From Synechococcus sp. UW140 (lineage in GTDB: Bacteria > Cyanobacteriota > Cyanobacteriia > PCC-6307 > Cyanobiaceae): a DNA stretch of 64,000 bases. The stretch spans positions 50,435 through 114,434 of the forward strand of contig CALRVC020000006.1 of assembly GCA_943371515.1 (NCBI GenBank), written 5' to 3'. A program made the translations under genes and the position numbers. The notes under the pieces are model-generated. The model was not told the origin of the DNA, did not search any database, and worked only from the letters and a program-made list of their open reading frames with translations. Below are positions 19,751-54,280 of this stretch, in pieces. Each line of letters opens with the position of its first letter. Within the stretch, counting starts at the first letter, position 1.

Positions 19751-20998
19751 ATGGTGGAGGGTCTCCGCCGTGTCGTGGTCACGGGCCTCGGCGCGGTCAC
19801 ACCGATCGGCAACGACGTCTCCCAGTACTGGGACGGGTTGCGGCTCGGCTCTAACGGGGTGGCGCCGATCACTCTGTTTGATGCCTCACGGCATGCCTGC
19901 CGATTCGCGGCCGAGGTGAAGAACTTCGATCCCAGCGATGTGCTGGATCGCAAGGAGACCAAGCGCTGGGACCGTTTCTGTCAGTTCGGTGTCGTGGCCT
20001 CCAAGCAGGCGGTGGACCAGGCGCAACTCCTGATCGACGAGAGCACGCAGCACCGCATCGGTGTGGCGATCGGCTCCGGTGTGGGCGGGTTGCTGATGAT
20101 GGAAAGTCAGGCCCATGTGCTCGCCGACCGGGGACCGGACCGGGTCAGCCCGTTCTGCGTGCCGATGATGATTCCGAACATGGCGGCCGGGCTGACCGCC
20201 ATTGCGCTCGGAGCCAAGGGTCCCAGCAGTGCTGTATCCACGGCCTGCGCCGCTGGATCCAATGCCATCGGCGATGCCTTCCGCCTGATCCAGCTCGGCC
20301 TGGCCGACGCCATGGTGTGCGGCGGAGCTGAATCGGCGATCACTCCCCTGGGGGTGGCGGGCTTCGCCAGTGCCAAGGCCCTCTCCTTCCGCAACGACGA
20401 CCCCGCCACCGCCAGCCGCCCCTTCGACGCCGAACGCAACGGCTTCGTGATCGGTGAGGGCTCAGGAATCCTGGTGCTCGAAAGCCTGGAGAATGCCCGC
20501 GCCCGCGGGGTCGAGATCCTGGCCGAGGTGGTGGGCTACGGCATGACCTGTGACGCTCACCACATCACCTCCCCGACCCCGGGGGGCCTGGGTGGCGCCG
20601 AAGCGATGCGGCTGGCCATGGCCGACGCACGGCTGGAGCCCGAGCAGGTCGACTACGTCAATGCCCACGGCACCAGCACCCAGGCCAACGACAGCAACGA
20701 GACCGCGGCGATCAAGGCAGCTCTGGGCGAGCACGCCTACCGGATTCCCGTCAGTTCGACCAAGTCGATGACCGGTCACCTGCTCGGCGGCAGCGGAGGG
20801 ATCGAGGCCGTGGCCGCCGTCCTGGCGATAGGCCACAACCTCGTACCACCTACCATCAATTACCAAAATCCGGATCCGGCCTGTGATCTGGATGTCGTGC
20901 CCAATCAGGCGCGGGAACAGAAACTGAACGTCGTGCTCTCGAATTCGTTCGGGTTTGGCGGTCACAACGTCTGCCTCGCCTTCCGTCGGATGCGCTGA
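19751..20998 (+). CDS. fabF: 3-oxoacyl-ACP synthase II
   Basis: [31 protein letters not shown] and NSFGFGGHN motifs. Confidence 0.98.
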
Positions 20999-21062
20999 AG
21001 AGCTGGCACTGCCAGCTCTGGGCCGCCCGGAACGCCTCACTCCCCCCACTCCTTCCCCAACC

Positions 21063-23075
<2,013 letters not shown>

Positions 23076-23137
23076 GCAACTCACCCTCCACAAGCCAGGA
23101 TTCGGAGCCGAAGGGCACCCCGGAACGCCTGTCGATC

Positions 23138-24211
23138 GTGCTGCCGACCTACAACGAACGGCAGAACGTCGCCCGAATCCTGGAGGAACTGCTGCCACTG
23201 AAGCAACGCTTCGACCTCGAAGTTCTCTTCGTGGACGACGACTCGGCCGACGGCACGGCGGATCTGGTCAAGCAACTGGCCCATGGCCAGGCGGGTGTGC
23301 GCCTGATCCGCCGGGTGGGGCGCGCCGGCCTGGCCAGCGCCATCAAGGAAGGCATCCTCGATGCAACCGGCGATGTGATCGTGGTCATGGACTGCGACGG
23401 CCAGCACGAGCCGGCTGCGGTGGAAGCAGCTGTTGAGGCTCTCCTGAGCAGCGGCAGCGATCTGGTGGTGGGCAGCCGCTTCCACGCCGAGGCGGCCATT
23501 CATGGCCTGAGTGAGAAGCGCACCCGCAACTCCACCTGGGCCAACACCATTGCCCGCTTCAGCCTTCCGGGCTACCGCCGGCTCACGGATTACATGAGCG
23601 GCTTCTTTGCCCTGCGCCCCGAGGCCGCGCTGCGCTATGTGCGGCGGGTGGATGTGAATGGATTCAAGTTTCTCTACGAGCTGCTCTCAATCAGCCGCGG
23701 TTCGCTGCGGGTGAGTGAAATCCCCCTGCACTTCCAGGCCCGGGTGGCTGGTGATTCCAAGCTGGATCTGGCGATCGTCTGGGATCTGGGGGTGTCAATT
23801 CTGCACACCCTGCTGCTGCGCTCGATTCCCCGCCGAGCCATCAGCTTCGCCCTGGTGGGCCTGAGCGGAGTGGCGGTTCAGATGCTGGTGGTGCAGGCGC
23901 TGATGGGCGCCGCGGGGCTGGTCTTCAAGCAAGCACTGCCGATTGCGGTGGTGGTGGCTGCCAGCTCCAATTACCTGATCAACAACGCACTGACCTTCCG
24001 CTTCCAACGCCAACAGGGAACAGCGCTGCTGAAGGGCCTGCTCAAGTTCCTGCTGGTGGCCTCCCTGCCGGTGCTGGCCAATGTGGGCGTGGCCTCCACG
24101 TTTTACAACCTGGTGTCCCGCAACACCTTCTTGGCGCAACTGGCCGGCATTCTGGTGGTGTTCGTTTGGAACTACGCGGCGTCGTCCAGGCTTGTCTGGA
24201 ACACACCTTAG
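23138..24211 (+). CDS. Polyprenol-phosphate glycosyltransferase (GT2, DPM1/GtrB-like) fused to C-terminal GtrA domain; true start probably upstream
   Basis: LSIVLPTYNE, VDDDSADGT, MDCDGQH, DYMSGFF; C-terminal four-TM segment FALVGLSG...SSNYLINN..TF...WNY. Confidence 0.88.
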   Translation: MLPTYNERQNVARILEELLPLKQRFDLEVLFVDDDSADGTADLVKQLAHGQAGVRLIRRVGRAGLASAIKEGILDATGDVIVVMDCDGQHEPAAVEAAVEALLSSGSDLVVGSRFHAEAAIHGLSEKRTRNSTWANTIARFSLPGYRRLTDYMSGFFALRPEAALRYVRRVDVNGFKFLYELLSISRGSLRVSEIPLHFQARVAGDSKLDLAIVWDLGVSILHTLLLRSIPRRAISFALVGLSGVAVQMLVVQALMGAAGLVFKQALPIAVVVAASSNYLINNALTFRFQRQQGTALLKGLLKFLLVASLPVLANVGVASTFYNLVSRNTFLAQLAGILVVFVWNYAASSRLVWNTP

Positions 24212-25812
24212 GGGTCCTGAGTCCATGTGACAGGTCCATCTGGGCGATGATGCTGGAGAAGTACCACGACGCTTTTCCCAGAGAGAAAAACGGAAGTATC
24301 AGCCGGCCAAGGACTAACTTTCTCGGCTTGATTCAGAGCGACCTGCTTTTCCTTCTCGCTAGGCCTGCGGAGCAGATTCTCTCCGAGAAGAAAGTTGAGG
24401 ATCTCAATCTGGCGATAGCTGGCGAAGGCTTCGGTGGTGAGCATATGGGGGGCGTCCTTTACGGACGGCCAGCGCACGAAGTCCGCGATTCGGAAGGGAG
24501 GATAGCGACCGATGACCACAAGCGCTGTCCGCTCCTTAATAGGTGTGCCCAGCAAGGGCTCAACCCGCACCAGAACACGATTGATCATGTTGAGTTCATA
24601 GGTCGTCTTGAGCTGGGCGGCATTGGATTGCTGGGTGCCGAGCACCAGGAAGAACCAGAGCAGCAGCCAGGCCAGCGGCAGGGCCGCCCAGCGAAGCGAT
24701 CTTGGCTGCAGCGCAAGCCCCAGAAAGAAAAGGAGCGCGTAGCCGTGGGCCGCATAGAACCTGCCGCTGTCAGTGGGCGTGGCGCTGTTCACGATGTTGG
24801 CGGCGTTCACCGCCACCGGAACCAGAAGAACGGCGGCGAGCAGGGCCAGCCGAACCGATCGATCCAGGCCCGGCCAGGCCTGCAGAGCGAGCAAACCCAG
24901 GGCAACAAGGATCAGGGGAATCAGGCCGAGCACTCCCCGGGGCACACCCCCCACTCCCGAAGCCAGATAGTCAAAGAACGTCCGGTAGGACTCACCCACC
25001 TCCTCGATGGCCTGACCCGCGCCGTTGAGACGGGTACTGGGCCAGATCGGAGCTGTAATCACGACCTTCGAGCTGATCCAGAACAGCACGGCCGACAGCA
25101 ATAAAGGAGCCGGAGCGAGCAGTGCCTCACGCAGGACTGCCGGCGGTTCGGCGTCGGGAGCGGACCGACGCCGAACCGCATGAACCGTCAACACGAGAAT
25201 CAGATTGAACAGCAGGAAGACACTGACCGAGGCGATCTTCGGCGCATAGGTGGCCAGGGCCATGAAGTAGAACGTGGAGGTGCCCAGAATTCTCGTGGGG
25301 TCACGCCTGCTCAGCACCCACACCAACGAGCCCAGAATCACGAACGTATCGGCGATCACGAACGAGATGTGGTCAGCGGCAAACGAGTAATAGTCAAGAA
25401 AAGCGGGGTACAGGCAAAGAATTCCAGCCAGCAGGAAGACATGCATCTTTCTCTGCAGCCCCACCAACCGGGCAAAAAGAATGCCATTCAATGCCTGAAG
25501 AAGGGCCGCACCGATCATCTGCAGGGACTGGACTCCGCTGCCGCCCTGAGCCAGGATGATCAGGTCGGCCAGCCATCGGCCTTCGCCCGATGTCTTGAAG
25601 CTTGGATAGTCGTAGAGCCTGCTGTTGGGAAAGGTATGATCCGTCAGCGTCATCTCCGTGAAGAAGTAGCTGTAGGCCACGATCTGCAGCAGGAGCAGCG
25701 CTATGAAGACGAGGCGATACCGAGCGGCCCAGGCGATGAAGGTCCGAAGCAAGGCCCGCAGAGAGATCCTGCCATAGGAAAGTCCTGCGTTCCAGCTCTC
25801 CGTTGCGGACAT
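24208..25812 (-). CDS. GT-C membrane glycosyltransferase, GtrII/GtrC-like
   Basis: About 11 hydrophobic segments, early EGRW and LYP motifs, soluble C-terminal domain; adjacent to GtrB-GtrA fusion. Confidence 0.6.
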   Translation of the reverse strand: MSATESWNAGLSYGRISLRALLRTFIAWAARYRLVFIALLLLQIVAYSYFFTEMTLTDHTFPNSRLYDYPSFKTSGEGRWLADLIILAQGGSGVQSLQMIGAALLQALNGILFARLVGLQRKMHVFLLAGILCLYPAFLDYYSFAADHISFVIADTFVILGSLVWVLSRRDPTRILGTSTFYFMALATYAPKIASVSVFLLFNLILVLTVHAVRRRSAPDAEPPAVLREALLAPAPLLLSAVLFWISSKVVITAPIWPSTRLNGAGQAIEEVGESYRTFFDYLASGVGGVPRGVLGLIPLILVALGLLALQAWPGLDRSVRLALLAAVLLVPVAVNAANIVNSATPTDSGRFYAAHGYALLFFLGLALQPRSLRWAALPLAWLLLWFFLVLGTQQSNAAQLKTTYELNMINRVLVRVEPLLGTPIKERTALVVIGRYPPFRIADFVRWPSVKDAPHMLTTEAFASYRQIEILNFLLGENLLRRPSEKEKQVALNQAEKVSPWPADTSVFLSGKSVVVLLQHHRPDGPVTWTQDP

Positions 25813-26084
25813 ATCCCGCCAAGCGATGCGGAATGATTATGCCTCAGAGCTCCCCAGTGATCCCTACGGCCACCTCAGCAGCCTGGATGCCCACCGACCG
25901 CATCCACAGGCAGAAATTGCCCTCCCACCGGAATCAGCGGAAAACAATCGAAGCCACCCTTGTGCAGAGCTGCTGCATGGCGCGAGGTCCACAGTCCCCT
26001 CAGACAGGATCAGATGGCGTTCAGGGCAATTAGAGAAGAATCCCTGCGATACGCCTCGGTGCACGTGTGTAAAATGGTTCGCGA

Positions 26085-27776
26085 ATGCCGTGCCTGGCTC
26101 GATCAGCCATGCATGCCCCTAGTGGACCTATCCCGCCTGTGTCCATAAACGAAGGAAGAGCGAGCAGAACCCGGCCAGTCGGTCTGCTGGTCTGGTGCGC
26201 AGTCCTGGCCAGCAGTCTGTTCACCCTCTGGTTCTGGCTGAGTACGGCTTCACAACCTCTGGTCGATCAGCATGGCTTTCGGCAGACGCAGACCGCACTT
26301 TCGGCTTTTCATCTGTTCCAGAACGGGAACGGCCTCCTGAACTACGAGACCCCTGTCCTGGGGAAACCGTGGTCCATCCCCTTCGAGTTTCCCACCTTCC
26401 AGCTGGCAGCTTACTCGCTAAAGAGAATCTCAACCTTTGATCTTACCAGCGCGGGACGGCTGACCAGCATCGGCTTCGCCATGGGCTGCCTAGCCATCGG
26501 CATTGCCATTCTCAGACAGTTCTCGATATCGAAAGCTGGCATCATTGTCTTTACACTGCTTTATCTTTCTTCGCCGATTTACCTGTACTGGAGCAGAACT
26601 TTCATGATCGAAAGTACTGCCTTGCTGCTCAGCCTGGCAGCTCTCTACCTGTATTGGGCATCAAGGCGACTTGATGACAGGCACTGGGGGAAAATCCTTA
26701 CGGTCCTCACCTCTCTTCTGATTTGCCTGACGCTGGCGCTGCTGACCAAGGCCACCACCGCCTTGCCGGTGTTCCTGCTGATCCTGATCGACCAAACCTA
26801 TGCGATGGGGGCCGCCACCCTGCGCCGAACCCACAGCATCGACAGACGCAGAATCCTCGCCCGTGGCATCATAGTTCTCGCTATTCTCCTACTGTCGTTT
26901 CTTACCTTGAAGGGTTGGACTGCTCACGCCGACGCACTCAAGGAGCTCAATCCATTTGCACGATTCCTCACTTCCAAACAGCTTGCTAGATGGAACTTTG
27001 GTGATTTTCGTCAACGCCTCTCAGGCGATCTGTGGGTCGGCGCTGTGTGGCAAAGGATGCTGACTCCAAGTGGATCCATTCCAATTGCCATTATTTTGAT
27101 TCTCGGCACCATCAAGACTCGCCCAAATAGCCAGAGCCGCTATCTCATTCTCTGCTTTATGGGCTTGGCGCTGGTACCGCTGTTCATCTTCACCAATCTC
27201 CACATCATACATAACTACTATCAGTACGCCAATGAGATTTATCTACTTCTCGCAATCGCCGTCTCCATCGATGCTCTGACTAGCTCAGGACGCCGATCGT
27301 GGAATCTCCTTGCTGGCATCTGCCTGACTATCATTATCATCAGCTTCTATGGAAACTTCTTCCAATCTTACTATCGTGATGCTCAGATCACGGACAATGC
27401 AGAAAGCATGGCAGGCGCCTACACAAGAAGTATCACGGACCCAACGGAAGCCATCCTTGTGTTCGGCGACGATTGGAGTTCGGCCATGGCCTTCCATTCA
27501 CAACGCAGAGCGTTCACCTTCCGTCCGGCCCTTACGACCTCAGGCGACGGGATCAATCAGAATTATATTCTGGCCAACCCAGCTGATTTCATCGGTCCGC
27601 TCAGACTCGGAGCCATCGCAAGCAGGGGAGAAAAGATTCCTGCCGACAAAGTGTCCATAGCCTGCGGTCGAGCCACCAGTGGGGAACCCCATGTCGAGGG
27701 CGATTGGCTGATCTACTCCTGCCGATCCAGCGCAGCGCGTGTACAGCCTGATGCGTCATCAGATATCAGGTCTTGA
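26085..27776 (+). CDS. GT-C membrane glycosyltransferase, ArnT/PMT-like
   Basis: HGFRQTQT..., YETPVLGKPWSIPFEFP, YWSRTFMIES and HNYYQ motifs; multiple TM segments; visibly low GC. Confidence 0.72.
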   Translation: MPCLARSAMHAPSGPIPPVSINEGRASRTRPVGLLVWCAVLASSLFTLWFWLSTASQPLVDQHGFRQTQTALSAFHLFQNGNGLLNYETPVLGKPWSIPFEFPTFQLAAYSLKRISTFDLTSAGRLTSIGFAMGCLAIGIAILRQFSISKAGIIVFTLLYLSSPIYLYWSRTFMIESTALLLSLAALYLYWASRRLDDRHWGKILTVLTSLLICLTLALLTKATTALPVFLLILIDQTYAMGAATLRRTHSIDRRRILARGIIVLAILLLSFLTLKGWTAHADALKELNPFARFLTSKQLARWNFGDFRQRLSGDLWVGAVWQRMLTPSGSIPIAIILILGTIKTRPNSQSRYLILCFMGLALVPLFIFTNLHIIHNYYQYANEIYLLLAIAVSIDALTSSGRRSWNLLAGICLTIIIISFYGNFFQSYYRDAQITDNAESMAGAYTRSITDPTEAILVFGDDWSSAMAFHSQRRAFTFRPALTTSGDGINQNYILANPADFIGPLRLGAIASRGEKIPADKVSIACGRATSGEPHVEGDWLIYSCRSSAARVQPDASSDIRS

Positions 27777-27815
27777 GTCCTCAAGCCCCCTCCTGTCTCT
27801 CCCATCGCTGAGTCC

Positions 27816-28739
27816 TTGGCCTTTGTTCCTTCCCTGATCCGTTCTTGCCGACCCCGGCAATGGAGCAAGAACCTGCTGGTGTATGCCTCGGCCGTGTTCG
27901 CTTTCTCGCTGGCTCCGTCGGTCTGGTGGAATTCCAGCCTTGCCCTGATCTGCTTTTGCCTGATCTCCAGCAGCGTCTACCTGGTCAACGACATCATCGA
28001 CGTCGAGGCCGATCGCCGACACCCCAGAAAATGCCACCGGCCGATCGCCTCTGGAGCCGTTCCGATCCCGGCGGCCCTGACGGCCTCCGCCTTTCTGGCG
28101 TTGGCGAGCCTTTCCCTGGCAGCGACCCTGACGCCCAGTCTCGCCATGGTGGTTCTGGCCTACGCCCTGATCCAGCTCGCCTACTGCCTGGGGCTCAAAC
28201 GCCAGCCCCTGATCGACCTGTTCTGCATCGCCTCCGGCTTTTTGCTGCGGGCCGTCGCCGGGCTGGTGGCCACGGGGCTCGGCAGCTCCCCCTGGTTCCT
28301 GCTCTGCGTGGGCCTGCTCGCCCTCTTCCTGGCGGTGGAGAAACGCAAGGCCGAACTGCGGGTCTCCATGGATCGAGGGGTGATCACCCGGCAGGTGCTG
28401 GAGCGCTACTCGCTTCCCCTGCTCCAACGGCTGGAATCCTTGGTAGCGAGCAGCGCCTTCATGGCCTACAGCCTCTGGAGCGCAGGTCCCACGCTCCAGG
28501 GAGCTCCCACCAGCTGGATGCTGCTGACGGTTCCATTCGTGCTGGTGGGAATCTTTCGCTACCAGCTTCTCAGTGACCCCGAGGAGGCCGAACGACGGGC
28601 CAGTCGGCATCCCGACCAGAGCACAGAACGTCCGGAGGAGATCCTTCTGGGCGACCGCGGCATCCAGCTCACCCTGTTGGGCTGGATGACCACCGTGGTC
28701 ATGGTAGGGATGGGCCACAGAATGGCTTGGTTCCCATGA
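27816..28739 (+). CDS. Polyprenyl-phosphate phosphoribosyltransferase (UbiA family, DPPR synthase-like)
   Basis: RPRQWSKNL, YLVNDIIDVEADRRHPRK.HRPIASG, GFLLRAVAG, KRKAEL, GIFRY and PEEILLGD motifs. Confidence 0.88.
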   Translation: MAFVPSLIRSCRPRQWSKNLLVYASAVFAFSLAPSVWWNSSLALICFCLISSSVYLVNDIIDVEADRRHPRKCHRPIASGAVPIPAALTASAFLALASLSLAATLTPSLAMVVLAYALIQLAYCLGLKRQPLIDLFCIASGFLLRAVAGLVATGLGSSPWFLLCVGLLALFLAVEKRKAELRVSMDRGVITRQVLERYSLPLLQRLESLVASSAFMAYSLWSAGPTLQGAPTSWMLLTVPFVLVGIFRYQLLSDPEEAERRASRHPDQSTERPEEILLGDRGIQLTLLGWMTTVVMVGMGHRMAWFP

Positions 28740-29464
28740 TTCGCAGCGCCTTCGTGCTCGGCAGCACCAGTGCTGTCGCAGCGGCGCTCTGCAGGGCGCT
28801 GGCCAGGCAGGGCTGTCGCCGCTTCCACCTGGTCGCCCGCGACGCCCCCGCCAACGAACGGCTGGCCGCCGAACTGCGTGTGCGCCATGGGGCCGACGTC
28901 AGCCTGGAAACATGCGATCTTTTCGCCACAGCCTCCCTGGACAAGCCGCTGAGGCCCAGCATCGATCAGAGCTTCGATCTCTATCTCATCACTGCAGGCT
29001 CGCTCGGGGATGCCGAGGTGGCACGGTCTGATGCAGCTGAAGCGCTGGCGATCACAGCCGCCAACTACAGCGGGCTGCTTCCCTGGCTGACCGCCATCGT
29101 CACATCCGAACGGATCGCCAGGCCCGGCAGACTGTGGGTGTTCACTTCAGTGGCCGCCGACCGGGGCAGGCCCTCCAACTACCACTACGGCGCAGCGAAA
29201 GCGGCCCTCACCACCTACTGCGAAGGGCTGCTGCTGCGCTGTCAGGGCCAGCCGTTCTGCGTGCGCATTCTCAAGGCGGGTTTTATGGCCACACCGATGA
29301 CGCTCGGCAAGGCCCCACCCCTGCTCTGCGCCAGCCCCGAGTCTGTGGCCCTGGACCTGCTGCGACGGCCCGATCGCCGTGGCATCGAGTACATCCCCTG
29401 GTGGTGGGCACCGCTGATGTGGATGGTTCGCCTGCTGCCACGCCAGCTGGCCAGCAAGCTATGA
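28736..29464 (+). CDS. DprE2-like short-chain dehydrogenase/reductase
   Basis: LGSTSAVA, SVAADRGRPSNYHYGAAKA (YxxxK), KAGFMATPMT; between DPPR synthase and DprE1 homologues. Confidence 0.8.
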   Translation: MIRSAFVLGSTSAVAAALCRALARQGCRRFHLVARDAPANERLAAELRVRHGADVSLETCDLFATASLDKPLRPSIDQSFDLYLITAGSLGDAEVARSDAAEALAITAANYSGLLPWLTAIVTSERIARPGRLWVFTSVAADRGRPSNYHYGAAKAALTTYCEGLLLRCQGQPFCVRILKAGFMATPMTLGKAPPLLCASPESVALDLLRRPDRRGIEYIPWWWAPLMWMVRLLPRQLASKL

Positions 29465-30834
29465 CCCTCTCCTTTCCCTCGGAAACCCGCACCCTCACGG
29501 GCTGGGGCCGCACGATGCCCGTAAAGGCGACGGTCTGGAAACCAGCGTCGCTGGAGCAGTTGCAGCAGCTGGTGCACCAGGCCAGGCCGGGCAGCCTGAT
29601 TCCCCGCGGCCTCGGCCGGTCCTACGGGGATGCTGCCCAGTGCGCCGATGGGAATGTGATCGATCTGGGCGGATTCGATCGGATCGAACTCGATCCGATC
29701 CAAGGCACGGTCACGGCCGGAGCTGGTGTCAGCCTCGCCTCGGTGCTGCGGGTGATCGTTCCGGCCGGATTTTTCCTGCCCGTCACCCCCGGCACCCGCA
29801 ACGTGACGGTGGGCGGTGCCATCGCCGCCGACGTGCACGGCAAGAACCACCACGTCGAGGGCAGCTTCGCCAGCCACGTGCGCCACCTTCAGCTGGTCGA
29901 CGGCAACGGTGACCAGCACACTCTGCAGCCGGATGGCGAGGAGGAAGCCGCGGCCGCCTTCTGGGCCACCGCCGGCGGCATGGGTCTCACTGGCGTCATC
30001 ACCGAGGCCACCTTCTCTCTCCTGCCGATCCGCACGTCCCTGATCAGCGTCGATACCGACCGCCACAGCACGCTCGACTCCCTGATGGCGGCGATGGTGG
30101 AGGGGGACGCGCGCTACCGCTACAGCGTCGCCTGGGTGGACAGTCTCCACCCCCGGGGCCGGGGCGTGCTCACCCGCGGGGACCACAGCAGCCGTGAACA
30201 ATTGCAGGAGCTGGGCTCAGCTCAGACGGCGGAACCCCTGGCCTACGACCCCAGGGCGCTGGCTTCGGCCCCGGCCTTTCTGCCCGGGGGACTTCTGAAC
30301 ACCTGGACGGTACGGGCCTTCAACGAAACCTGGTTCCGCAAGGCCCCCGCGCATCGGATCGGCGAGCTTCAGGCCATCGGCCCCTTCTTCCATCCCCTCG
30401 ATGGTGTCGCCGACTGGAACCGCATCTATGGACCGGCCGGCTTCCTGCAGTACCAGTTCACCGTGCCGGACGAGGCTGCCGAGCTGGTGCCCCGCGCCCT
30501 GGAGGCCCTGCGCGGCATCGGCGCGCCCAGCTTCCTGACGGTGCTCAAACGTTTCGGGTCCGCCAATGCGGGACCCCTCTCATTCCCACAACCCGGGTGG
30601 ACCCTCGCCGCCGATGTGCCAGCGGCCGTGCCCGGACTGTTCGAGCTGCTCGATCGGCTCGACGAGCAGGTGGCGGCCAGCGGCGGACGTCTTTACCTGG
30701 CCAAGGATTCGCGCCAGTCCGCTGCCATCTTCCAGCGCAGCTATCCGCGACTCGATGACTGGCGGCGGCAGCGGAACCGACTCGATCCCCGCGCTGTCTT
30801 CAGCTCCGACCTGGCCCTGCGAGTCGGACTCTGA
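29461..30834 (+). CDS. DprE1-like FAD-dependent oxidase
   Basis: RGLGRSYGDAAQ, PVTPGTRNVTVGGAIAADVHGKNHH, WNRIYG..GFLQYQ, VLKRFG and GRLYLAKD motifs. Confidence 0.92.
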   Translation: MTLSFPSETRTLTGWGRTMPVKATVWKPASLEQLQQLVHQARPGSLIPRGLGRSYGDAAQCADGNVIDLGGFDRIELDPIQGTVTAGAGVSLASVLRVIVPAGFFLPVTPGTRNVTVGGAIAADVHGKNHHVEGSFASHVRHLQLVDGNGDQHTLQPDGEEEAAAAFWATAGGMGLTGVITEATFSLLPIRTSLISVDTDRHSTLDSLMAAMVEGDARYRYSVAWVDSLHPRGRGVLTRGDHSSREQLQELGSAQTAEPLAYDPRALASAPAFLPGGLLNTWTVRAFNETWFRKAPAHRIGELQAIGPFFHPLDGVADWNRIYGPAGFLQYQFTVPDEAAELVPRALEALRGIGAPSFLTVLKRFGSANAGPLSFPQPGWTLAADVPAAVPGLFELLDRLDEQVAASGGRLYLAKDSRQSAAIFQRSYPRLDDWRRQRNRLDPRAVFSSDLALRVGL

Positions 30835-31147
30835 TGCGCAGGGACAGCCGCACCGACTGTTCAGCCACCTCAATCACGTTCCGACACTTTCCTTTTGTCA
30901 TCGACGATCTCAATGCGGATGGTATTGTCTTCAGGAGCCACAGGGCGGCGCCAGAAGCGATGACCAGACTGCTCGTATTCCCGGTGATCAAGAATAGAAA
31001 TGAGCGGCTTGACATGACGAAGAGAAGAGCTGTTCGGCAGAACAAATCAATCCGCCACCAGCAACAGCTCTCGGCCGGGAGAGTCTCAGTGAACGCCGTC
31101 GATAGTCCCTTCAAGTTGATTCCCGACAGGATGGAGATGATCCGGCG

Positions 31148-32086
31148 ATGAGGGTGTTCCTCCCCGGTGGGGCCGGCCTGGTGGGCCTCAACCTGATCGC
31201 AGTGATTCAGCAACACCATCCCGACTGGCAGTTGCTCGTGGTGGACAAGAAGACCGAAGCGCTGGAAATCGGCAGGCGTCTGTTTCCCTCCGTCAGCTTC
31301 GTCGACGAGGATCTGACCCGCACGAGCGGACAGACCTGGCCGGCCCTGCTCAGCGGCTGTCACGCCTGCGTGATGCTTCAGGCCGAAATCGGCAACACCG
31401 ATCCCCAGGCCTTCGAGCGCAACAACATCACCAGCACCGAGGTGGTGCTGGCTGAATTGCGTCGACAGGGAATCCCCAGGCTCGTCCACGTGAGCAGCTC
31501 AGTGGTGAACTCCGTGGCCACCGACCTCTACACAAGCACTAAGCGCCGACAGGAGGAACTCGTCAGGCGTGCCTGGCCTGAGGCCGTCGTGCTGCGCCCC
31601 ACCCTGATGTTCGGATGGTTCGACCGCAAGCACCTCGGCTGGCTAGCACGCTTCATGCAACGCCTGCCGGTGTTCCCCATCCCCGGCTCAGGTCGGTTCA
31701 TCCGCCAGCCCCTCTATGTCGGCGACTTCTGCAGCATCATCGTGCGCTGCCTGGAGAGACCCTCCTTCAGCGGCACTTACGACATCACCGGCACAGAGCG
31801 GGTGACCTACATCAGCCTGATGCGTCAACTGCGCACTGCCGTGTCCGCGCGGCCATTGATCCTCCATCTGCCCATTCCCCTGTTCGGTTGGCTTCTGCAG
31901 CTCTGGGCCCTGATCAGTCGCCAGCCGGCCTTCACCCGGGATCAGCTTCAGGCACTCACAGCAGGTGATGAGTTTGAGGTGATCGACTGGCCGGGGATCT
32001 TCTCGGTTTCGCCCACGCCGCTGGCAGAGGCTCTGCGGATCGCCTATCGAGATCCCCGCTATTGCAACGTGGTGATCCCCTTCTGA
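31148..32086 (+). CDS. NAD-dependent epimerase/dehydratase family protein
   Basis: GGAGLVG Rossmann motif, HVSSS, YTSTK, LRPTLMFG. Confidence 0.85.
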   Translation: MRVFLPGGAGLVGLNLIAVIQQHHPDWQLLVVDKKTEALEIGRRLFPSVSFVDEDLTRTSGQTWPALLSGCHACVMLQAEIGNTDPQAFERNNITSTEVVLAELRRQGIPRLVHVSSSVVNSVATDLYTSTKRRQEELVRRAWPEAVVLRPTLMFGWFDRKHLGWLARFMQRLPVFPIPGSGRFIRQPLYVGDFCSIIVRCLERPSFSGTYDITGTERVTYISLMRQLRTAVSARPLILHLPIPLFGWLLQLWALISRQPAFTRDQLQALTAGDEFEVIDWPGIFSVSPTPLAEALRIAYRDPRYCNVVIPF

Positions 32087-33390
32087 TGAGCAGCACCTCC
32101 AGCATCGCTGTCATCGGCGGCGGCCCGATGGGTCTGGCCGTGGCCTACGAGCTCTGCCTCCAGGGCTTCCGGCCCGTGTTGCTCGAAGCCGACGACCGGC
32201 TCGGCGGCATGGCGGCCAGCTTCGATTTCGCCGGTGTTGAGCTGGAGCGTTATTACCACTTCCACTGCCTCAGTGACCGGGCCTTCTTCCAGCTGCTACA
32301 GGAACTGAACCTTCAGGATTCCCTGCGCTGGGAGCAGACCCGGATGGGATTCTTCCTCGATGGGCGTCTCTATCCGTGGGGTTCGGCCGGGGCCGTACTC
32401 GGTTTCAGGCGGTTGCCGCTTTCAACGCGCCTGCGCTATCTACTCCATGCTGCGCGTTGTCTCACGATCCGCGACTGGCGCCACCTCGATGGCCTGTCGG
32501 CGACGTCATGGCTGAAACGCTGGCTAGGCGAACAGGGATATCATGTGCTGTGGGGAAAACTCTTCGCCTACAAGTTCTATCACCACACTGATTCGCTCTC
32601 GGCCGCCTGGATCTGGAGCCGGATCCGCCGTGTCGGCCAGTCACGCCGGGGGCTGAAGGAAACCCTAGGCTATCTGGACGGTGGATCGAAGCGTTGGATC
32701 GAGGCCCTTGCCAACGAGATCCGCCGGCAGGGTGGCACGATCCGCCTCAACAACCCCGTGGGACAGCTGGGTGGCAGTGCTGAGGCTGGAGGCGTCGAGC
32801 TCTCCACACCAGCGGGAATGGAGCGCTTCGATGCTGTCATCTCCACGGTGCCGCTGCCACTGGTGGCTCCGATGCTCACGACCGGCGGCGTTGATGCGGC
32901 ACTGGTGCAGCCATTCGAAGCGCAACTCTCTGTGGCCTGCGCCTGCGTGGTGATCCAGACCAGACAGCCGATCACCCAGAATTTTTGGACCAACGTCAAT
33001 GACGAGCGATTCCGGATCCCCGGCATTATCGAAATGTCGAACCTGCAGCCGCTCCAACCCCACATCACCTACGTACCCTTCTATATGCCGGCCGACCATC
33101 CCGACTACGGCCGTCCGAACGAAGCCTTCATCAACGATTCGATCGCTTGCCTGAAGGCGATCAACCCGTCTCTCCAGGACGAGGACTTCCTGGCCTGCCA
33201 CTGCAGCCGTTATCGCCATGCCCAGCCGGTGTGCGGCGTTCACTTCCTGCGCACCCTGCCGCCGCTGCAGCCCCTGCCGAACCTCTGGATTGCCGACACC
33301 ACCGTGTACTACCCGGAGGACCGGGGCATCTCAGAGAGTGTTCAGTTCGGTCGAGAACTGGCGCGTAAGATCGCCGACAGCCTGAGATGA
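32086..33390 (+). CDS. FAD-dependent oxidoreductase (HemY/amine-oxidase fold)
   Basis: IGGGPMG, EADDRLGGMA, ERYYH, LGYLDGG, YYPEDRG. Confidence 0.85.
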   Translation: MSSTSSIAVIGGGPMGLAVAYELCLQGFRPVLLEADDRLGGMAASFDFAGVELERYYHFHCLSDRAFFQLLQELNLQDSLRWEQTRMGFFLDGRLYPWGSAGAVLGFRRLPLSTRLRYLLHAARCLTIRDWRHLDGLSATSWLKRWLGEQGYHVLWGKLFAYKFYHHTDSLSAAWIWSRIRRVGQSRRGLKETLGYLDGGSKRWIEALANEIRRQGGTIRLNNPVGQLGGSAEAGGVELSTPAGMERFDAVISTVPLPLVAPMLTTGGVDAALVQPFEAQLSVACACVVIQTRQPITQNFWTNVNDERFRIPGIIEMSNLQPLQPHITYVPFYMPADHPDYGRPNEAFINDSIACLKAINPSLQDEDFLACHCSRYRHAQPVCGVHFLRTLPPLQPLPNLWIADTTVYYPEDRGISESVQFGRELARKIADSLR

Positions 33391-33800
33391 CCGCCACCGG
33401 GAATCAACGTCGGCAATTCACGGCATTCGTACTCACCGGGGGACTGGCCGCCATGGTGAACGTGGTGAGCCGGGTCGGATTCTCCACAGTCGTGCACTTC
33501 GATCTGGCGGTTCTGCTCGCCTACGGATGCGGCATGCTCACGGCCTATCTCCTGGCTAGGAAGTTCGTGTTCATGAGCAGCCGCGTCAGCGTACGTCGAT
33601 CCTTCGCTGCCTTCTGCCTCGTGAATGCCTTCGCAGTGCTGCAGACCTGGGCGGTGAGCCTTGGGATGCGCAACTGGGTACTGCCGCTGCTCGGCATCGT
33701 GCTGTTCCGCGATCTGATCGCCCACACCATCGGCGTCGCCGTGCCGGTGGTCAGCAGCTATTTCGGGCACAAGCATATTTCCTTCCGTGATCACACCTGA
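33387..33800 (+). CDS. GtrA family polyprenyl-P-sugar translocase
   Basis: FVLTGGLAA..N, AY..AR.FVF, F..VN, SYFGHK..SF; 137 aa with 4 TM segments. Confidence 0.88.
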   Translation: MTATGNQRRQFTAFVLTGGLAAMVNVVSRVGFSTVVHFDLAVLLAYGCGMLTAYLLARKFVFMSSRVSVRRSFAAFCLVNAFAVLQTWAVSLGMRNWVLPLLGIVLFRDLIAHTIGVAVPVVSSYFGHKHISFRDHT

Positions 33801-35361
33801 CGACAAACTTCCGGTGGTGGCCGCCTTCGATTTTGACGGCACCCTCATCCGTGGCGACTGCCTGCTGATGCTGCACCGCCAGCTCAAGGGAGTCGGAGGC
33901 ATGGCGCTCGACTGGTTGCGCCTGATCAGGCCATTCCTCGCCTGGTCCAGGGGCCGTCTGAGCACAGCCGGCTTCAAGGAGCGCTATCTGTGCGTAGTGC
34001 TCCTGGACATGACACGGGAGACCCTCTCCATCGCGTTGAGCCATGCGCTGCCGGCCGTGGAGTGGCGCGCCCTGCGGCCTGGAGCCCTCGCCCGCCTGCG
34101 CTGGCATCAGACCCAGGGCCATCGTGTGGTGATCATCTCTGCTTCGCCCCGTCCCCTGATCGCTCCACTCGCTGATCGACTGGGGGTGGACCTGCTGGCC
34201 ACCGAGATCAGCGATCCTCTGGAGCATGGGCCGTCCACTCCCCTGCGGCTCACCTCGGCCAACTGCAAAGGAGCCGAGAAGGTCCAACGACTCAAGGACT
34301 GGCTTGATCTGCCCCTGGAGGAGATCAGCCTGTATGCCTACGGCGACAGCCGCGGGGACCGCCAGCTGTTGGAGGTGAGCACGGCGCCCCACTGGCGCAG
34401 CTTCGGCCCGGAACCGCGGCCCTACCCAGGCAGGAGGGCGACAGCGGGACCACCGGGTGGCTGGATCCCGCTGGCGGCGCTCATTCTGCTGAGCCTGGCC
34501 TTGTTCGGGCTGGCAGGCCTGAGCCCGGCGGAGCGACTCGGCCTCCAGGAGAGCCTGGGCCGTGTGCTGGCCTGGCTGCCGGCCATCTACGTGATCCTGG
34601 GATTGGCCTACTTGGGGCGTTACTGGCGCTGGCGACTGCTATTGAGCTCCGCCGACATCGGCCGCTGGAGCTGGCGCGATGCCGGAGCCTGGTTCGTGGG
34701 CTTCGCCCTCACCGCCACCCCCGGCAAACTCGGTGAGCTGAGCAGGGTGCAGCAGCTGCACCGGGAACTTGGCTATTCGCGCGCAGCGCTGGTGCATGTT
34801 TTCGTGGCGGAAAGGCTCTGCGATGGCGTGGCCGTGCTGCTGTGGCTGGCACTGCTGGCGCCCTCCGTCCTTCGGGCTGGCCTTGGGCGACTCCAACCGC
34901 CCGCGATCGGCCTGATGCTGCTGATGGGAGCCGCAGTCCTCGTTGCCATTGTCTGGATCTGGAGACGGTGGGGAGCGCCCTGGCGCCACCGTCTTCCCAG
35001 CGGTGCCCTGGGCAGGGCCTGCCTGCCTGCCAGCATCGTGAGTATGGGGATCTGGGCCTGTGAATCGCTGATTCTCTGGCTTCTGGTTCGGGTGGTCAGC
35101 CCCGCTCACCCGGTGCAGATCCAGGCGGCGATCAGCACTTACCTGCTTTCAGGATCACTCGGGATGCTCTCCACCCTCCCGGGCGGGGTGGGCGTCAACG
35201 AGGGAGCCACGATCGTGCTGCTGGCTCGCCTGGGTGTTCCAACCTCCGCAGGACTCGCCATCGCCATCCTGCGGCGCCTCTGCACGGTGTGGAGTGTGAC
35301 CGGACTGGCCGTGATGCTTGGCTGGTGGCGAGAGAGCCGAGAAGGCCTGAAACGGGCCTGA
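33787..35361 (+). CDS. HAD-IB phosphatase fused to lysylphosphatidylglycerol-synthase-TM (UPF0104 flippase-like) domain
   Basis: DFDGT, ISAS, NCKGAEK and YGDSRGD HAD motifs; C-terminal RYWRW, TPGKLGE, ERLCD and PGGVGVNEG motifs. Confidence 0.82.
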   Translation: MITPDDKLPVVAAFDFDGTLIRGDCLLMLHRQLKGVGGMALDWLRLIRPFLAWSRGRLSTAGFKERYLCVVLLDMTRETLSIALSHALPAVEWRALRPGALARLRWHQTQGHRVVIISASPRPLIAPLADRLGVDLLATEISDPLEHGPSTPLRLTSANCKGAEKVQRLKDWLDLPLEEISLYAYGDSRGDRQLLEVSTAPHWRSFGPEPRPYPGRRATAGPPGGWIPLAALILLSLALFGLAGLSPAERLGLQESLGRVLAWLPAIYVILGLAYLGRYWRWRLLLSSADIGRWSWRDAGAWFVGFALTATPGKLGELSRVQQLHRELGYSRAALVHVFVAERLCDGVAVLLWLALLAPSVLRAGLGRLQPPAIGLMLLMGAAVLVAIVWIWRRWGAPWRHRLPSGALGRACLPASIVSMGIWACESLILWLLVRVVSPAHPVQIQAAISTYLLSGSLGMLSTLPGGVGVNEGATIVLLARLGVPTSAGLAIAILRRLCTVWSVTGLAVMLGWWRESREGLKRA

Positions 35362-35440
35362 CAGAAATACTTTGGCCTCCAGAGCAGCAGCCTGCCACGC
35401 AGAAGCCAAGCCGCCAAGTCGTGGTGAAAAAGTCAGCGCG

Positions 35441-35542
35441 TCGGTGCCGCCGGAGCAATTGCTGCTGCAGCAACTCCACAACAATCTGCTGTTCCGTTAG
35501 TTTGTGGATCTGCACCCAGATGATCCGATCTGGCACCCGACC
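35441..35542 (+). pseudogene. IS5-family transposase fragment
   Basis: In-frame SVPPEQLLL-QQLHNNLLFR*FVDLHPDDPIWHPT resembles the IS5 segment PEQLL...EQL.YNLLFRWFVG..DD..W; TAG at 35498 replaces Trp. Confidence 0.75.
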
Positions 35543-35943
35543 AAGGATGGCCTACGGCCGGCCCCGGGTTCAGAAAACGAATCAGTACACACGTACGCCC
35601 TCGCGCCCGAAACACCTACGGCCAAGCCAGAGTACCCTTGCCACTCTGGTCATGAGGACATCGGGCCATGGCCGATGACATCTTTGGAGGCCTGACCCCG
35701 AAAGGAAACGTGGCCTGGGATTTGAATTGCGCTCAAAGATCCTGAGGCTGCTCCACCTCTTTATTGTGTTCTTTTTTTCCTGTCTTTGCAGGCTTGTCCG
35801 GCTCCATATCTCACCAGGGAAGGCCTGGACAATTACCGACGAAAGATGGAAGGATTGGCCAGTCACCGCATAGACGTGGCCATAGCCTCCGTAAGCCCTC
35901 CTCAGATGCCCGTTGCGGCGCGATGTGGCATCGGTTGTTTTTC

Positions 35944-36015
35944 ATGAGTCCCTACTGCCGTGAGCGGGGCTTGTCTCCCGAGCAGGTGGATCGCTGGCGA
36001 GCAGCGTCCCAGTAA
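35944..36015 (+). mobile_element. IS3-family OrfA fragment
   Basis: YCRERGLSPEQVDRWR resembles the YCRERGL.PEQ..RW helix of IS3 OrfA. Confidence 0.65.
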
Positions 36016-36212
36016 GTGCTTCTCGGGAGGCGAACCGTCAGATATCAGCTGTGGCCATGGGTGGGCCGGTCTGTGACCCTGTTTGGAGCACAACCACCAA
36101 ACCGAACACAGACCATGACCCTGTGCCCCGTGTCAATCAGGTTGAGGTCCGCGCCCTGAAATCAGGCTCCAGCTCAGCTCCCTTCCACGACTGGCATTCA
36201 GAGGCAGTCGGT

Positions 36213-37373
36213 TCAGCGGGTCGGGGTACCGACAACATCCGTGGCTTGTTGACGCAGGGAGCTCACCACGCCACTGCGCTTGAGTTCGCTGATCGCCAGA
36301 TCGATCCGTTGAGCAGTGGCCTCAGGCAACCCAGGGGCAAAGACAAACGCCTGGGATTCAGGCCGAATGCCCTGCAGGGCCAGGCTGGGCAGGAAGCCTT
36401 TCAACGGAGAATGGATCAAAAGATAGCTCAGCTGCAGGTTGTCGCCCAGCAACGCATCGATTCGCCTGGAGACCAGAAGATCGACCCCCGAACGAATGCT
36501 GGCAAGGGGCAGGATCGAGACCTTCGGGCCCATGGTGGCGGCGTTGAGTTCCTGCAGCAACGCTTCGCTCACAGTGCCGCTGCGCACTCCCACCCGCAGA
36601 CCGAGCAGATCTGACTCAGAACGGATCCCTCCGCTGGCCGTGCCCTGCACCTCCCGTGCCACATTCACGGTGAGATAGCCCACCAGCAGGGAGGCTGAGA
36701 CGATCCTCACCATGTAGGCCATCAACACGATGGCATTCCCCCTGGTGGTGGCCACGAGGGTGTTGCTGCCTGGCCCGGTCGCGAGCACCTGGAACACTTT
36801 GCTGAAGCTGCGAACGCGCCCTTGGCTGAGGGTCTGGGGCAGCTGGGGGTAGCGCTCCACGGTCCAGGTCAGCAGGGACAGAAGCGCGATCGCCAGCAGG
36901 TAGCCGCCCAGCAGCTGCAGCAGCGTGGGCGTCAGCAGCGCAGCCAGGAATGAGCGGCCTAAATCAAGTCGGCTCTGCACCACCATCACCGCGAGCCCAT
37001 CCTCCTGGAAGGGAAGACTGAAGCGGTAACGCTCCAGCCGATCAGGCGACACGTTGAGGCAGCCCACCGCCAGATCCAGCCTGCCGTCGCGGGTGCCCTC
37101 CAACATCTCCTGGACCGAGGGCATCTCCGAAACCACGTAAGGAAGACGCTCGCGCGTGGCAATCCGGTTCCATAGATCGATGGATAGCCCCCGCCAGGCA
37201 CCTGCGTCCCGGTAGCTGCACGGAGGCGCCCCATCCACCACTCCCACCCGCAACACTGGCGCCGACGTTCCGGCAGAAACCGGGAACCCCACTGCCAGTA
37301 GCAGGGCGTAGCCCGAGCCCACCAGCACACCTCTGATGCGGACGTCAATGCTGAAAGCTCTGCTTCGTGCCAT
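36213..37373 (-). CDS. GluR0-like ligand-gated channel / PBP type 2 protein with internal TM segments
   Basis: Signal peptide; S1 lobe (LRVGV..PP, GLSIDLW, DLAVG..VSPDR..FSLPF); two TM helices with a re-entrant segment; S2 lobe (DL.GLRVGV, DALLGD). Confidence 0.75.
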   Translation of the reverse strand: MARSRAFSIDVRIRGVLVGSGYALLLAVGFPVSAGTSAPVLRVGVVDGAPPCSYRDAGAWRGLSIDLWNRIATRERLPYVVSEMPSVQEMLEGTRDGRLDLAVGCLNVSPDRLERYRFSLPFQEDGLAVMVVQSRLDLGRSFLAALLTPTLLQLLGGYLLAIALLSLLTWTVERYPQLPQTLSQGRVRSFSKVFQVLATGPGSNTLVATTRGNAIVLMAYMVRIVSASLLVGYLTVNVAREVQGTASGGIRSESDLLGLRVGVRSGTVSEALLQELNAATMGPKVSILPLASIRSGVDLLVSRRIDALLGDNLQLSYLLIHSPLKGFLPSLALQGIRPESQAFVFAPGLPEATAQRIDLAISELKRSGVVSSLRQQATDVVGTPTR

Positions 37374-37888
37374 GGGGTCATTCTGGCGGGGCCTAAAGGA
37401 TCGTCCCGATCCCAATCAGGGAAAGCATGCCCTGCAAGAGAGGGACCTTGGAGCAAGCCGGCTCCCCTCATTAAAAGTTTTGCCGATCACTTCATGGCAC
37501 CATGAACAGTCTATCCCCCTGCTTGATCGAGTGTCGCTCTAAAAAGTAGAACAATAGTTCTCGACTCCAGAGTTTCGAAATAGCAGCTTTTCACGGCGCC
37601 CATTAGTCTCAGTGCAGAGCTCCCTTGGGCGACAGTCCCGGCATGCAAAGCACCGCCCAGTATCACCTGAGGGGATCGAGGCGATCGACCAGGTCGTGGT
37701 GATAGATCTGGTTCGGGCGGATCCCATGCAGGGAGATCACCCGCTCGGGTGTGGTCAGAAAATAGAGCGCACCGCCTGGGATCGCCGCTGTCAGGAAACT
37801 CTCGGCCATCTGGCCGCAGGTGTGATCGGGAGCCAGGCCCACCCAGGCGATCACCTGCTGGGCCGTAGGGACGCGCCGTGCGCCCAAA

Positions 37889-39449
<1,561 letters not shown>

Positions 39450-52375: not shown

Positions 52376-52479
52376 GGGGGCCAATCCTGCGGACATTGAT
52401 CAGGGGGTCAGAGTAAGAGCTGGACGTTGCTTGCCCGAGGCCGGCTCAGCCTCGTCTCGGCAGGGTCCTGACCGGAGGC

Positions 52480-54165: not shown

Positions 54166-54280
54166 GGACAGGAACGAGGCTTGGCTGTTCTCCCCCGAAC
54201 CAGCTGGGGCTCTGCTGAATAGCCCGGGAGTCGCCAGGGCAGGGCGTGAAACCCAGCCAGGCGTCGATACAGTAGGTGCA

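Follow-up and report, generated by a model that had tools for sequence, protein, structure and literature searches.

Flexible genomic islands with surface-glycan genes are thought to set the susceptibility to phages and grazers of picocyanobacteria, which are the predominant small phototrophs in lakes, estuaries and oceans. In replacement flexible genomic islands (Lopez-Perez, Martin-Cuadrado and Rodriguez-Valera, 2014, PMC4033161; Alteromonas pangenome, PMC4898812), the content of a fixed locus between core genes differs between close relatives, genes for exposed glycans are prominent, no integrase or tRNA is present, and clusters are shared by divergent backgrounds. Peaks of synonymous change in the core genes at the island borders are the signature of replacement by homologous recombination (PMC4033161). 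The islands of Prochlorococcus and marine Synechococcus (Coleman, 2006; Dufresne, 2008; both cited in PMC7522525) are hypervariable and laterally acquired, with many cell-surface genes and an atypical composition. In the gtrABC serotype-conversion modules of Shigella and Salmonella (PMC11127046), conserved GtrB and GtrA proteins are followed by a variable polytopic transferase. A published model of three-component periplasmic pentofuranosylation has DprE1/E2 acting where the sugar is arabinofuranose (Kelly et al., 2024, PMC11127046). Here we characterize a locus that can be compared with each of these systems, the interval between the transketolase gene tkt and thiC in Synechococcus sp. UW140. 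It was analysed within a stretch of 64,000 nucleotides (contig CALRVC020000006.1, positions 50,435 to 114,434), referred to hereafter as the window.

The tkt–thiC locus shares with replacement islands a fixed position between core genes, content that differs between close relatives and in some alleles may concern exposed glycans, the lack of integrase and tRNA, clusters that occur in divergent backgrounds, and a synonymous peak in a flank. Unlike in those islands, the variation lies between species and genera rather than within one species, the substitution peak is confined to one flank, several alleles consist of transporters or of nearly nothing, and debris of insertion sequences (IS) is abundant. 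The locus also resembles the islands of Prochlorococcus and marine Synechococcus in the traits listed above. Islands of this kind are well known in aquatic bacteria and picocyanobacteria; no description of a tkt–thiC island was found in the literature searched, and this hotspot, together with a cargo resembling the decaprenylphosphoryl arabinose (DPA) pathway, appears to be undescribed. We conclude that in Cyanobium-like genera of the family Cyanobiaceae tkt–thiC is probably a recombination hotspot, a flexible genomic island of the replacement type, and that its cassette has most likely been exchanged by homologous recombination in the conserved flanks.

In what follows UW140 is genome G000, its ten congeners are G001 to G010, and other G-numbers denote other genomes of the family; genera are numbered separately and always called 'genus', and g1 to g11 without that word are genes of the interval. 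Sampling was one genome per species, and the trees were quick single-gene trees. The genes tkt (plus strand) and thiC (minus strand) converge on an interval of 14,813 bp. A preliminary description of the window had taken this whole interval, from the tkt stop to the thiC stop, as the island. The interval is real, but its variable part is smaller. Homology to the three closest congeners, G003, G001 and G002 (97% nt identity by blastn), ends at 24211, the stop codon of g1, and restarts at 36208–36212, the stop of a gene for a binding protein of the SBP_bac_3 family (the SBP gene). The actual indel thus spans 24212–36207, a 12.0-kb segment made up of the cassette and an IS graveyard (blastn and tblastn against the relatives' intervals); G003 has 65 bp in its place.

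The genes on either side of this segment belong to the conserved background. Directly after tkt, g1 was found in all ten congeners at 69–99% amino acid (aa) identity, making it genus-core and placing it outside the variable segment; its identity at fourfold-degenerate sites, 90% to G003 and 58% to G034, is core-like. The SBP gene (92% aa identity in G003, G001 and G002) directly follows g1 in these three genomes and is not part of the indel, and the whole of 36208–37888, comprising the SBP gene and a small open reading frame (ORF), is common to them. The tkt protein is 98% identical in the same three relatives. The variable segment has a GC content of 62.1%, and the genome mean is 0.655. The low-GC segments noted previously were confirmed by a GC profile, with stretches of 0.51–0.58: 0.51–0.55 at 26.1–27.9 kb, 0.57 at 24.0–24.6 kb and 0.57–0.58 at 35.4–36.3 kb. 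Both g3 (54.2%) and g7 (54.4%) fall within the lowest 4% of 1-kb windows of the genome, g3 at the 3.5th percentile.

When tkt and thiC were used as queries against 60 relatives, the two genes proved to be adjacent in most other genera of the family, with a gap of 48–231 bp in eight genomes and of about 1.1–1.3 kb in seven more. In a further 15 DprE1-positive genomes the gap was 42–1908 bp. The gap in other genera was mostly 42–1270 bp, consistent with the synteny given in the preliminary description, in which tkt normally directly precedes thiC. Within the genus of UW140, gaps of 2.9, 3.5, 3.7, 4.6, 6.9, 10.5, 12.7, 14.8 (UW140 itself) and 18.9 kb were measured, with contig breaks at the site in two more genomes. 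On one contig, tkt (with g1) and thiC bound variable DNA in UW140, in eight of its ten congeners and in several other genera. The junction is closed (42–1270 bp) in the sampled family members with small genomes and open only in the Cyanobium and sub-cluster 5.2-like genera, in genomes of larger size.

The open sites are filled with different DNA, and at least six gene contents were distinguished among the eleven species of the genus. In G008 the cargo is a low-GC GtrB-like GT2 gene with GtrA; G005 has such a low-GC pair as well, together with a 56% homologue of g2 (GtrII-like) among IS3 and IS5-like elements. A low-GC gene for a 517-aa polytopic protein, a second GT2/GtrA pair and IS3, IS21 and IS256 elements occupy the site in G004, and a low-GC gene for a 597-aa polytopic protein occupies it in G006. 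The cargo is CorA and SulP in G007 and G009, a PhyH dioxygenase in G010, and the SBP gene only in G003, G001 and G002. In another genus, G020 carries NeuB, a GT2 and a GtrA-like ORF; this last, like a P-type-ATPase-like ORF additionally present in G009, was assigned by reading the sequence only. Glycosylation-type genes or orphan polytopic membrane proteins were thus found in five of the eleven species (G000, G004, G005, G006 and G008), the rest having CorA/SulP, PhyH or only the SBP gene. The alleles with CorA/SulP transporters, with PhyH or with the SBP gene are not glycosylation loci; genes of glycan modification are enriched at the site without being its only cargo.

No integrase or recombinase domain was detected in any ORF of the interval by Pfam and NCBIfam scans, ARAGORN found no tRNA or tmRNA in the 64-kb window, and a repeat search gave imperfect 14–40 nt matches at chance level only, with no direct repeat bracketing the interval. 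All three had been reported missing in the preliminary description, and these searches agree. The small ORFs at 25826–26122, 35289–35678, 36051–36614, 37612–37965 and 37663–37887, examined for integrase and transposase, yielded only a Transposase_20 match (E 0.11). It is very improbable, therefore, that the segment is a site-specific integrative element (a prophage-like gtr module, a tycheposon or an integrative and conjugative element) or an assembly chimera. The gtr-like content does recall phage-borne gtrABC modules, and the contigs of relatives often break at the locus (G001, G002 and G034). However, there is no phage gene besides the missing integrase, recombinase, tRNA and att repeat, and the coding density leaves no room for such functions. 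As regards a chimera, the locus sits in the middle of a 127-kb contig, and the independent assembly of G034 repeats the order tkt-g1-g2...g11 on one contig.

The right flank carries a recombination signal. Nucleotide identity to G003 and G001, calculated per 500 bp, had a baseline of 96.4% (SD 1.7, 66 windows), as compared with an average of 92.9% in the seven windows covering 36.5–40.0 kb (p = 1e-4). At fourfold-degenerate sites, thiC had the lowest identity of all shared genes: 81.3% to G003, where the baseline is 91.6% (6443 sites), and 77.2% to G001, where it is 90.9% (8638 sites; binomial p = 3e-7 and 3e-10, respectively). Despite this synonymous peak, identity of the ThiC protein to the same two relatives stays at 96–97%. 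In the thiC nucleotide tree, G148, which belongs to another genus, lies inside the clade of G000, G003, G001 and G002, and G034 lies inside the other clade of the genus; both placements contradict the tkt tree. In the exchange that we propose, the 3' end of g1 or tkt would serve as the left anchor and the exceptionally conserved thiC as the right one; site-specific machinery would take no part, and IS elements would add local rearrangements. The earlier suggestion of a swap by homologous recombination through core flanks is supported by the variable cargo, by movement between lineages, by the lack of integrase, tRNA and att sites and by the thiC peak and tree, with the qualification that an IS-assisted step is possible.

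At its 3' end, g1 departs atypically from all relatives over ~30 nt. This stretch was considered as the mark of a G034-like crossover, but being unlike every relative it provides a hint only.

Three fragments of different IS families lie side by side at 35736–36122, between g11 and the SBP gene (Table 1). The preliminary description had counted two IS scars; the scars are real, but there are three of them, from three families. The copy on contig C64 of the element represented by fragment 1 encodes a 523-aa DDE_Tnp_1_2 + DUF772 transposase, and fragment 3 also matches one end of UW140 contig C38. Mobilization by IS elements, with the cassette moving in a composite transposon or by recombination that takes place between IS copies instead of core flanks, would explain these fragments. 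It would also be in keeping with the intact IS3, IS21, IS256 and IS5-like elements that crowd the corresponding islands in G004 and G005, and with the breaks of G034 contigs at an IS beside thiC. Against this stands the left border, which has no IS remnant and consists of the overlapping stops of g1 and g2. The repeat search revealed no inverted or direct repeats bracketing the variable segment, and the layout of a composite transposon, with an IS at both ends and a target-site duplication, was not found, the IS fragments being at the right border only. Cassettes at the same site in G144, G080, G357 and G413 have no IS noted, although no IS search was made there. We regard IS-mediated mobilization of the cassette as distinctly unlikely, and homologous recombination in the core flanks as the better account.

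Of 401 genomes of the family, 34 had a homologue of DprE1 (g6 in UW140); they represent 18 of the 64 genera, and the ten congeners were all negative. The preliminary description had allowed that the genes might be core in relatives; the cassette is absent from all ten congeners and so is not core, having been lost or replaced in these other species. All cassette genes are single-copy in UW140. Outside the family, the nearest DprE1 proteins are ~50–55% identical and come from Actinomycetota. Named carriers within it include Cyanobium usitatum Tous, Synechococcus sp. CB0101, Synechococcus sp. MIT S9503 and a Cyanobium metagenome-assembled genome.

The placement of the cassette was examined at 20 DprE1-positive loci. 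It lies between tkt and thiC in G144 and G080, which belong to one genus, and in G357 and G413, which belong to another; in G034 and G312 it is next to tkt, with thiC on another contig; and in G087 it is on a separate contig. In G102, G197, G278, G381, G283, G109, G177, G368 and G419 the distance from the cassette to the tkt–thiC junction, which is closed or has other content, is 50 kb to >1 Mb. Both placements occur within the single genera genus g62 and genus g88.

Identity at fourfold-degenerate sites was then compared for individual genes. For the pair G000 and G034, it was 50–73% with a mean of 61% in 22 core genes from both flanks (tkt 66, g1 58), as compared with 72–91% for the cassette (g2 91, g3 76, g4 83, g5 85, g6 84, g8–g11 72–74; Mann–Whitney p = 2e-5). 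A similar but mosaic pattern was obtained with G087 (g5 92, g2 72). GC content at third codon positions is lower in the cassette than in the core, so codon bias cannot account for the excess of identity. The DprE1 tree places G000 (genus g1), G034 (genus g25) and G087 (genus g78) in one clade with support of 100. In the same tree G148, also of genus g78, is distant from G087; G381 (genus g62) groups with genus g10, apart from G357 and G413; and G368 is apart from G312. The tkt tree, unlike the DprE1 tree, keeps genera together. Because synonymous identity is higher in the cassette than in the core, and because the DprE1 and tkt trees are incongruent, the sequence comparisons indicate that the cassette has crossed genus boundaries more than once. 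The G034 and G087 copies differ from that of UW140 about as much as core genes do within the genus, which would fit an exchange in which a member of this genus was donor or recipient.

The cassette might instead be an ancestral resident of the tkt–thiC site, inherited vertically by UW140 and lost independently by the other congeners without any horizontal transfer. Such a history would account for the one site that cassettes of five genera share, and in many genomes the identity of DprE1 does roughly track that of tkt. It would also account for a remnant in G005, 152 bp of the 3' end of g11 (L007:14804-14955), which lies 10 bp from the thiC stop among IS elements and a different gtr-like set. 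The remnant has the ending of the G000 type, not that of the G034/G087 type, and is 88% identical to the UW140 copy, about the core level for G000 and G005. It indicates that the cassette was already in the genus and has also been lost from it, and the word 'inserted' used in the preliminary description is thus too simple for a cassette formerly present and repeatedly lost. Purely vertical inheritance is nevertheless unlikely. It does not explain why fourfold identity of the cassette to G034 and G087 is 72–92% when that of the core is 50–73%, or why G087 and G148, which share a genus, carry DprE1 proteins 92% and 75% identical to that of G000. The separation of G381 from its congeners G357 and G413, that of G368 from G312, and the different cassette loci within genus g62 and within genus g88 are also contrary to it. 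The history combines loss with exchange between lineages, the latter most likely by homologous recombination.

Several observations weigh against this conclusion. The SBP gene, which lies between thiC and the indel, has baseline fourfold identity to G003 (91.6%; G001 86.9%), so that continuity of the divergent tract with the indel is not demonstrated. On the left flank, a substitution peak is lacking apart from the final ~30 nt of g1. The IS fragments sit exactly at the right border, where IS elements may have mediated a step. Among the homologues compared, none qualified as a donor with >92% protein identity. The shared site in five genera and the G005 remnant at the core level of 88% suggest that vertical descent with many losses explains part of the distribution, and transfer may have run in either direction. 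The system may also be partly decayed, since g5 scores below the DprE2 cutoff and g7 is truncated.

The nucleotide identity of thiC is ~89–93% across genera whose neighbouring genes have 72–83%. Either thiC alleles circulate between genera, or thiC is under an unusual constraint at the nucleotide level. Because thiC is conserved at ~90% across genera with neighbours at 72–83%, we put forward, as a tentative extension that may well prove wrong, that thiC and to a lesser degree tkt/g1 could act as a cross-genus landing pad for swapping periplasmic glycan-modification modules among freshwater and brackish picocyanobacteria. One of these modules would give a mycobacterial-type lipid-linked D-arabinofuranose donor, a pathway undescribed in the phylum. 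More generally, the locus marks a place to seek strain-specific glycan genes in any Cyanobium-type genome or metagenome. With an empty site of 65 bp, at least six cargoes, a decayed remnant and cross-genus copies, it is a precisely bounded example suited to the dating and modelling of gain, loss and recombination.

The cargo of UW140 forms one divergently organized module, with g2 on the minus strand and a translationally coupled operon, g3 to g11, on the plus strand (Table 1). Overlaps of 4–25 nt at most junctions of g3–g11 give the latter its operon-like appearance; g2 is divergent from it and convergent with g1. Eight hydrophobic segments were counted in the g2 protein, which has 90% aa identity to its homologue in G034, 71% in G087 and 56% in G005. 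The first gene of the operon, g3, has the lowest GC content of the genes (54%). An AlphaFold model of its product (predicted local distance difference test score, pLDDT, 89.7) was matched by Foldseek to ArnT 5f15 (E 1.7e-7, template modelling score 0.57–0.60), PglB, ALG12, AftD and AftA. Among 5.8 billion proteins, close homologues of g3 were limited to G034 (81%) and G087 (79%), the next being at 43%; a closer donor, with >81% identity, was not found in that set. A PDB sequence search with g2 and g3 gave no matches. In every related cassette g5 neighbours DprE1, and g8 is kept in cassettes across genera.

We consider that the cargo probably encodes a DPA-like pathway and GT-C transferases that add a pentose, arabinofuranose, to the cell surface, as judged from the protein families. 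Polyprenyl-P-ribose-5-P would be made by g4 from phosphoribosyl pyrophosphate (PRPP) and dephosphorylated by the HAD domain of g11. DprE1 (g6) and the DprE2-like g5 would then epimerize C2, yielding polyprenyl-P-arabinofuranose. Export of the lipid-linked sugar could be carried out by the GtrA protein g10, the flippase-like domain of g11, or both, and the GT-C enzymes g3 and g2 would transfer the sugar to a periplasmic or surface glycan or protein. We infer the identity of the sugar, its acceptor and a role in the evasion of phages or grazers; switching of a surface antigen, as the preliminary description proposed, is plausible in view of the gene content. The same description linked the cassette to transketolase through the supply of PRPP. 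Adjacency is all that supports this, and tkt also adjoins thiC in relatives that lack the cassette. The cargo suggests that decoration with arabinofuranose or another pentofuranose, known from mycobacteria and a few proteobacteria, may occur sporadically in cyanobacteria.

The 105 aa of g7 align at 51% identity to the last 96 aa of a 696-aa ORF of G034, and 1.84 kb present at this point in G034 and G087 are deleted in G000. The intact 696-aa gene of G034 and G087 lies at L037:10416-12506 and L036:6734-8824; its product has ~10 hydrophobic segments and no Pfam family. This protein may be a third, unclassified transferase of the cassette.

Compared with the three-component pentofuranosylation systems (PMC11127046) and with mycobacterial DPA synthesis (Rv3806c, DprE1/DprE2, Rv3789, Aft/Emb), the cassette has in common a UbiA-type phosphoribosyltransferase, an HAD-type phosphatase, DprE1 with a short-chain dehydrogenase/reductase partner, a small GtrA-type protein and GT-C transferases, all in one cluster. 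The flippase differs: it is of the MATE type in Citrobacter and GtrA/SMR-like in mycobacteria, whereas the cassette has no MATE protein and carries g10 (GtrA) and, in g11, an LPG_synthase_TM-like domain. This domain, rather than the synthase, is the fusion partner of the HAD phosphatase. Further differences are the extra pair of an epimerase-like protein and an FAD oxidase (g8/g9) and the cyanobacterial host. No paper pairing DprE1 with cyanobacteria or Synechococcus was found in the literature searched.

As in gtrABC modules (PMC11127046), GtrB and GtrA functions, fused here as g1, precede a variable polytopic gene, which is g2 in G000, its 56% homologue in G005, and unrelated genes for 517- and 597-aa putative transferases in G004 and G006. 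Unlike gtrABC modules, the locus is chromosomal without phage context, and the GtrB-GtrA fusion is genus-core. None of the orphan polytopic proteins (G004, 517 aa; G006, 597 aa; G034, 696 aa; G144, 606 aa; G413, 558 aa) matched a Pfam family, and BLASTP among the orphans related only the 558-aa protein of G413 to g3 (32%) and the 696-aa protein of G034 to g7. The genes for the 517- and 597-aa proteins of G004 (L008/L009) and G006 (L003) have 43–45% GC and follow the GtrB-GtrA fusion; the proteins are unlike each other and unlike g2 and g3. Both may be lipid-sugar transferases of an undescribed kind, their size, position and ~7–10 hydrophobic segments allowing a guess at the GT-C type.

Table 1. 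Features of the tkt–thiC interval of Synechococcus sp. UW140 and its flanks; positions are those of the 64,000-nt window.
Feature	Position	Strand	Assignment	Evidence
tkt	20955..23075	+	Transketolase, left core flank	Pfam Transketolase_N/pyr/C, E 1e-156
g1	23138..24211	+	GT2 polyprenyl-phosphate glycosyltransferase + GtrA (GtrB-GtrA fusion)	Pfam Glycos_transf_2 4.5e-28, GtrA_DPMS_TM 3.5e-20
g2	24208..25812	-	GtrII-like polytopic glycosyltransferase (GT-C type)	Pfam Glucos_trans_II 3.9e-10, 39.8 bits (cutoff 30)
g3	26085..27776	+	ArnT/PMT-like GT-C glycosyltransferase	Pfam PMT 22.7 bits, at cutoff
g4	27816..28739	+	UbiA-family polyprenyl-phosphate phosphoribosyltransferase (DPPR-synthase type)	NCBIfam NF008978 263 bits (cutoff 207); PDB 8j8j E 1.2e-50
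g5	28727..29464	+	Short-chain dehydrogenase/reductase, DprE2-like reductase	Pfam adh_short; NCBIfam DprE2 NF053786 97.7 bits, below cutoff 250
g6	29467..30834	+	DprE1-type FAD oxidase	NCBIfam NF053785 541 bits (cutoff 500); PDB 4aut E 2e-113
g7	30834..31151	+	C-terminal remnant of a 696-aa polytopic membrane gene	Alignment to 696-aa ORF of G034
g8	31148..32086	+	NAD-dependent epimerase/dehydratase-like	Pfam Epimerase 9.9e-15
g9	32062..33390	+	FAD amine-oxidase-like oxidoreductase (PRK07233 family)	Pfam Amino_oxidase 7e-26; NCBIfam NF005560 449 bits (cutoff 252)
g10	33387..33800	+	GtrA-family small membrane protein, candidate lipid-sugar flippase	Pfam GtrA_DPMS_TM 1.3e-12
g11	33787..35361	+	HAD-IB phosphatase fused to LPG_synthase_TM (flippase-like) domain	Pfam HAD 3.5e-31, LPG_synthase_TM 1.1e-32; NCBIfam TIGR01490, TIGR01488, TIGR00374
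IS fragment 1	35736..35954	+	3' end of IS5/IS1182-like element	90-93% identity to C64:5583-5800 and to ends of C21, C70 and C8 (same genome)
IS fragment 2	35951..36004	+	54-bp piece of IS3-family orfA	87% identity to G005 L007:7707-7759, inside an ORF with Pfam HTH_Tnp_1
IS fragment 3	36035..36122	+	5' end (first 88 bp) of IS256-family element	93% identity to starts of two 436-aa Transposase_mut genes in G004 island
SBP gene	36213..37415	-	SBP_bac_3 membrane-anchored binding protein	Pfam SBP_bac_3 1.8e-15
Small ORF	37663..37887	-	Small conserved 74-aa ORF abutting thiC stop	Pfam Transposase_20, E 0.11 only
thiC	37889..39367	-	Right core flank, probable recombination anchor	Pfam ThiC_Rad_SAM 4e-186

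In the right flank, the protein encoded by the SBP gene has a ~330-residue span with hydrophobic segments and a weak match to a glutamate-receptor ligand-binding domain. Its aa identity to G003 (92%) is as low as the identity at fourfold sites (91.6%), which suggests that the gene may be under relaxed or diversifying selection. The 74-aa ORF beside thiC was considered as a further IS scar, a marginal C-terminus of an IS110-family element. This was rejected because the ORF is conserved next to thiC in both G003 and G034, the region being kept in the former and an 86-aa homologue lying beside thiC in the latter, a genome of another genus.

Two further differences from the nearest relatives were seen beyond thiC. 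Identity to G003 and G001 dips to 88–89% at 42001–42500 within a stretch of 95–98%, and this may be another small recombination patch. At 52000–54500, inside a region of 3-deoxy-D-manno-octulosonic acid (Kdo) and polysaccharide genes, a second segment differs in presence or absence: near 52.0 kb the homology to G003 ends, and G001 lacks ~52.5–54.5 kb, including a 607-aa ORF at 52480–54303 on the minus strand.

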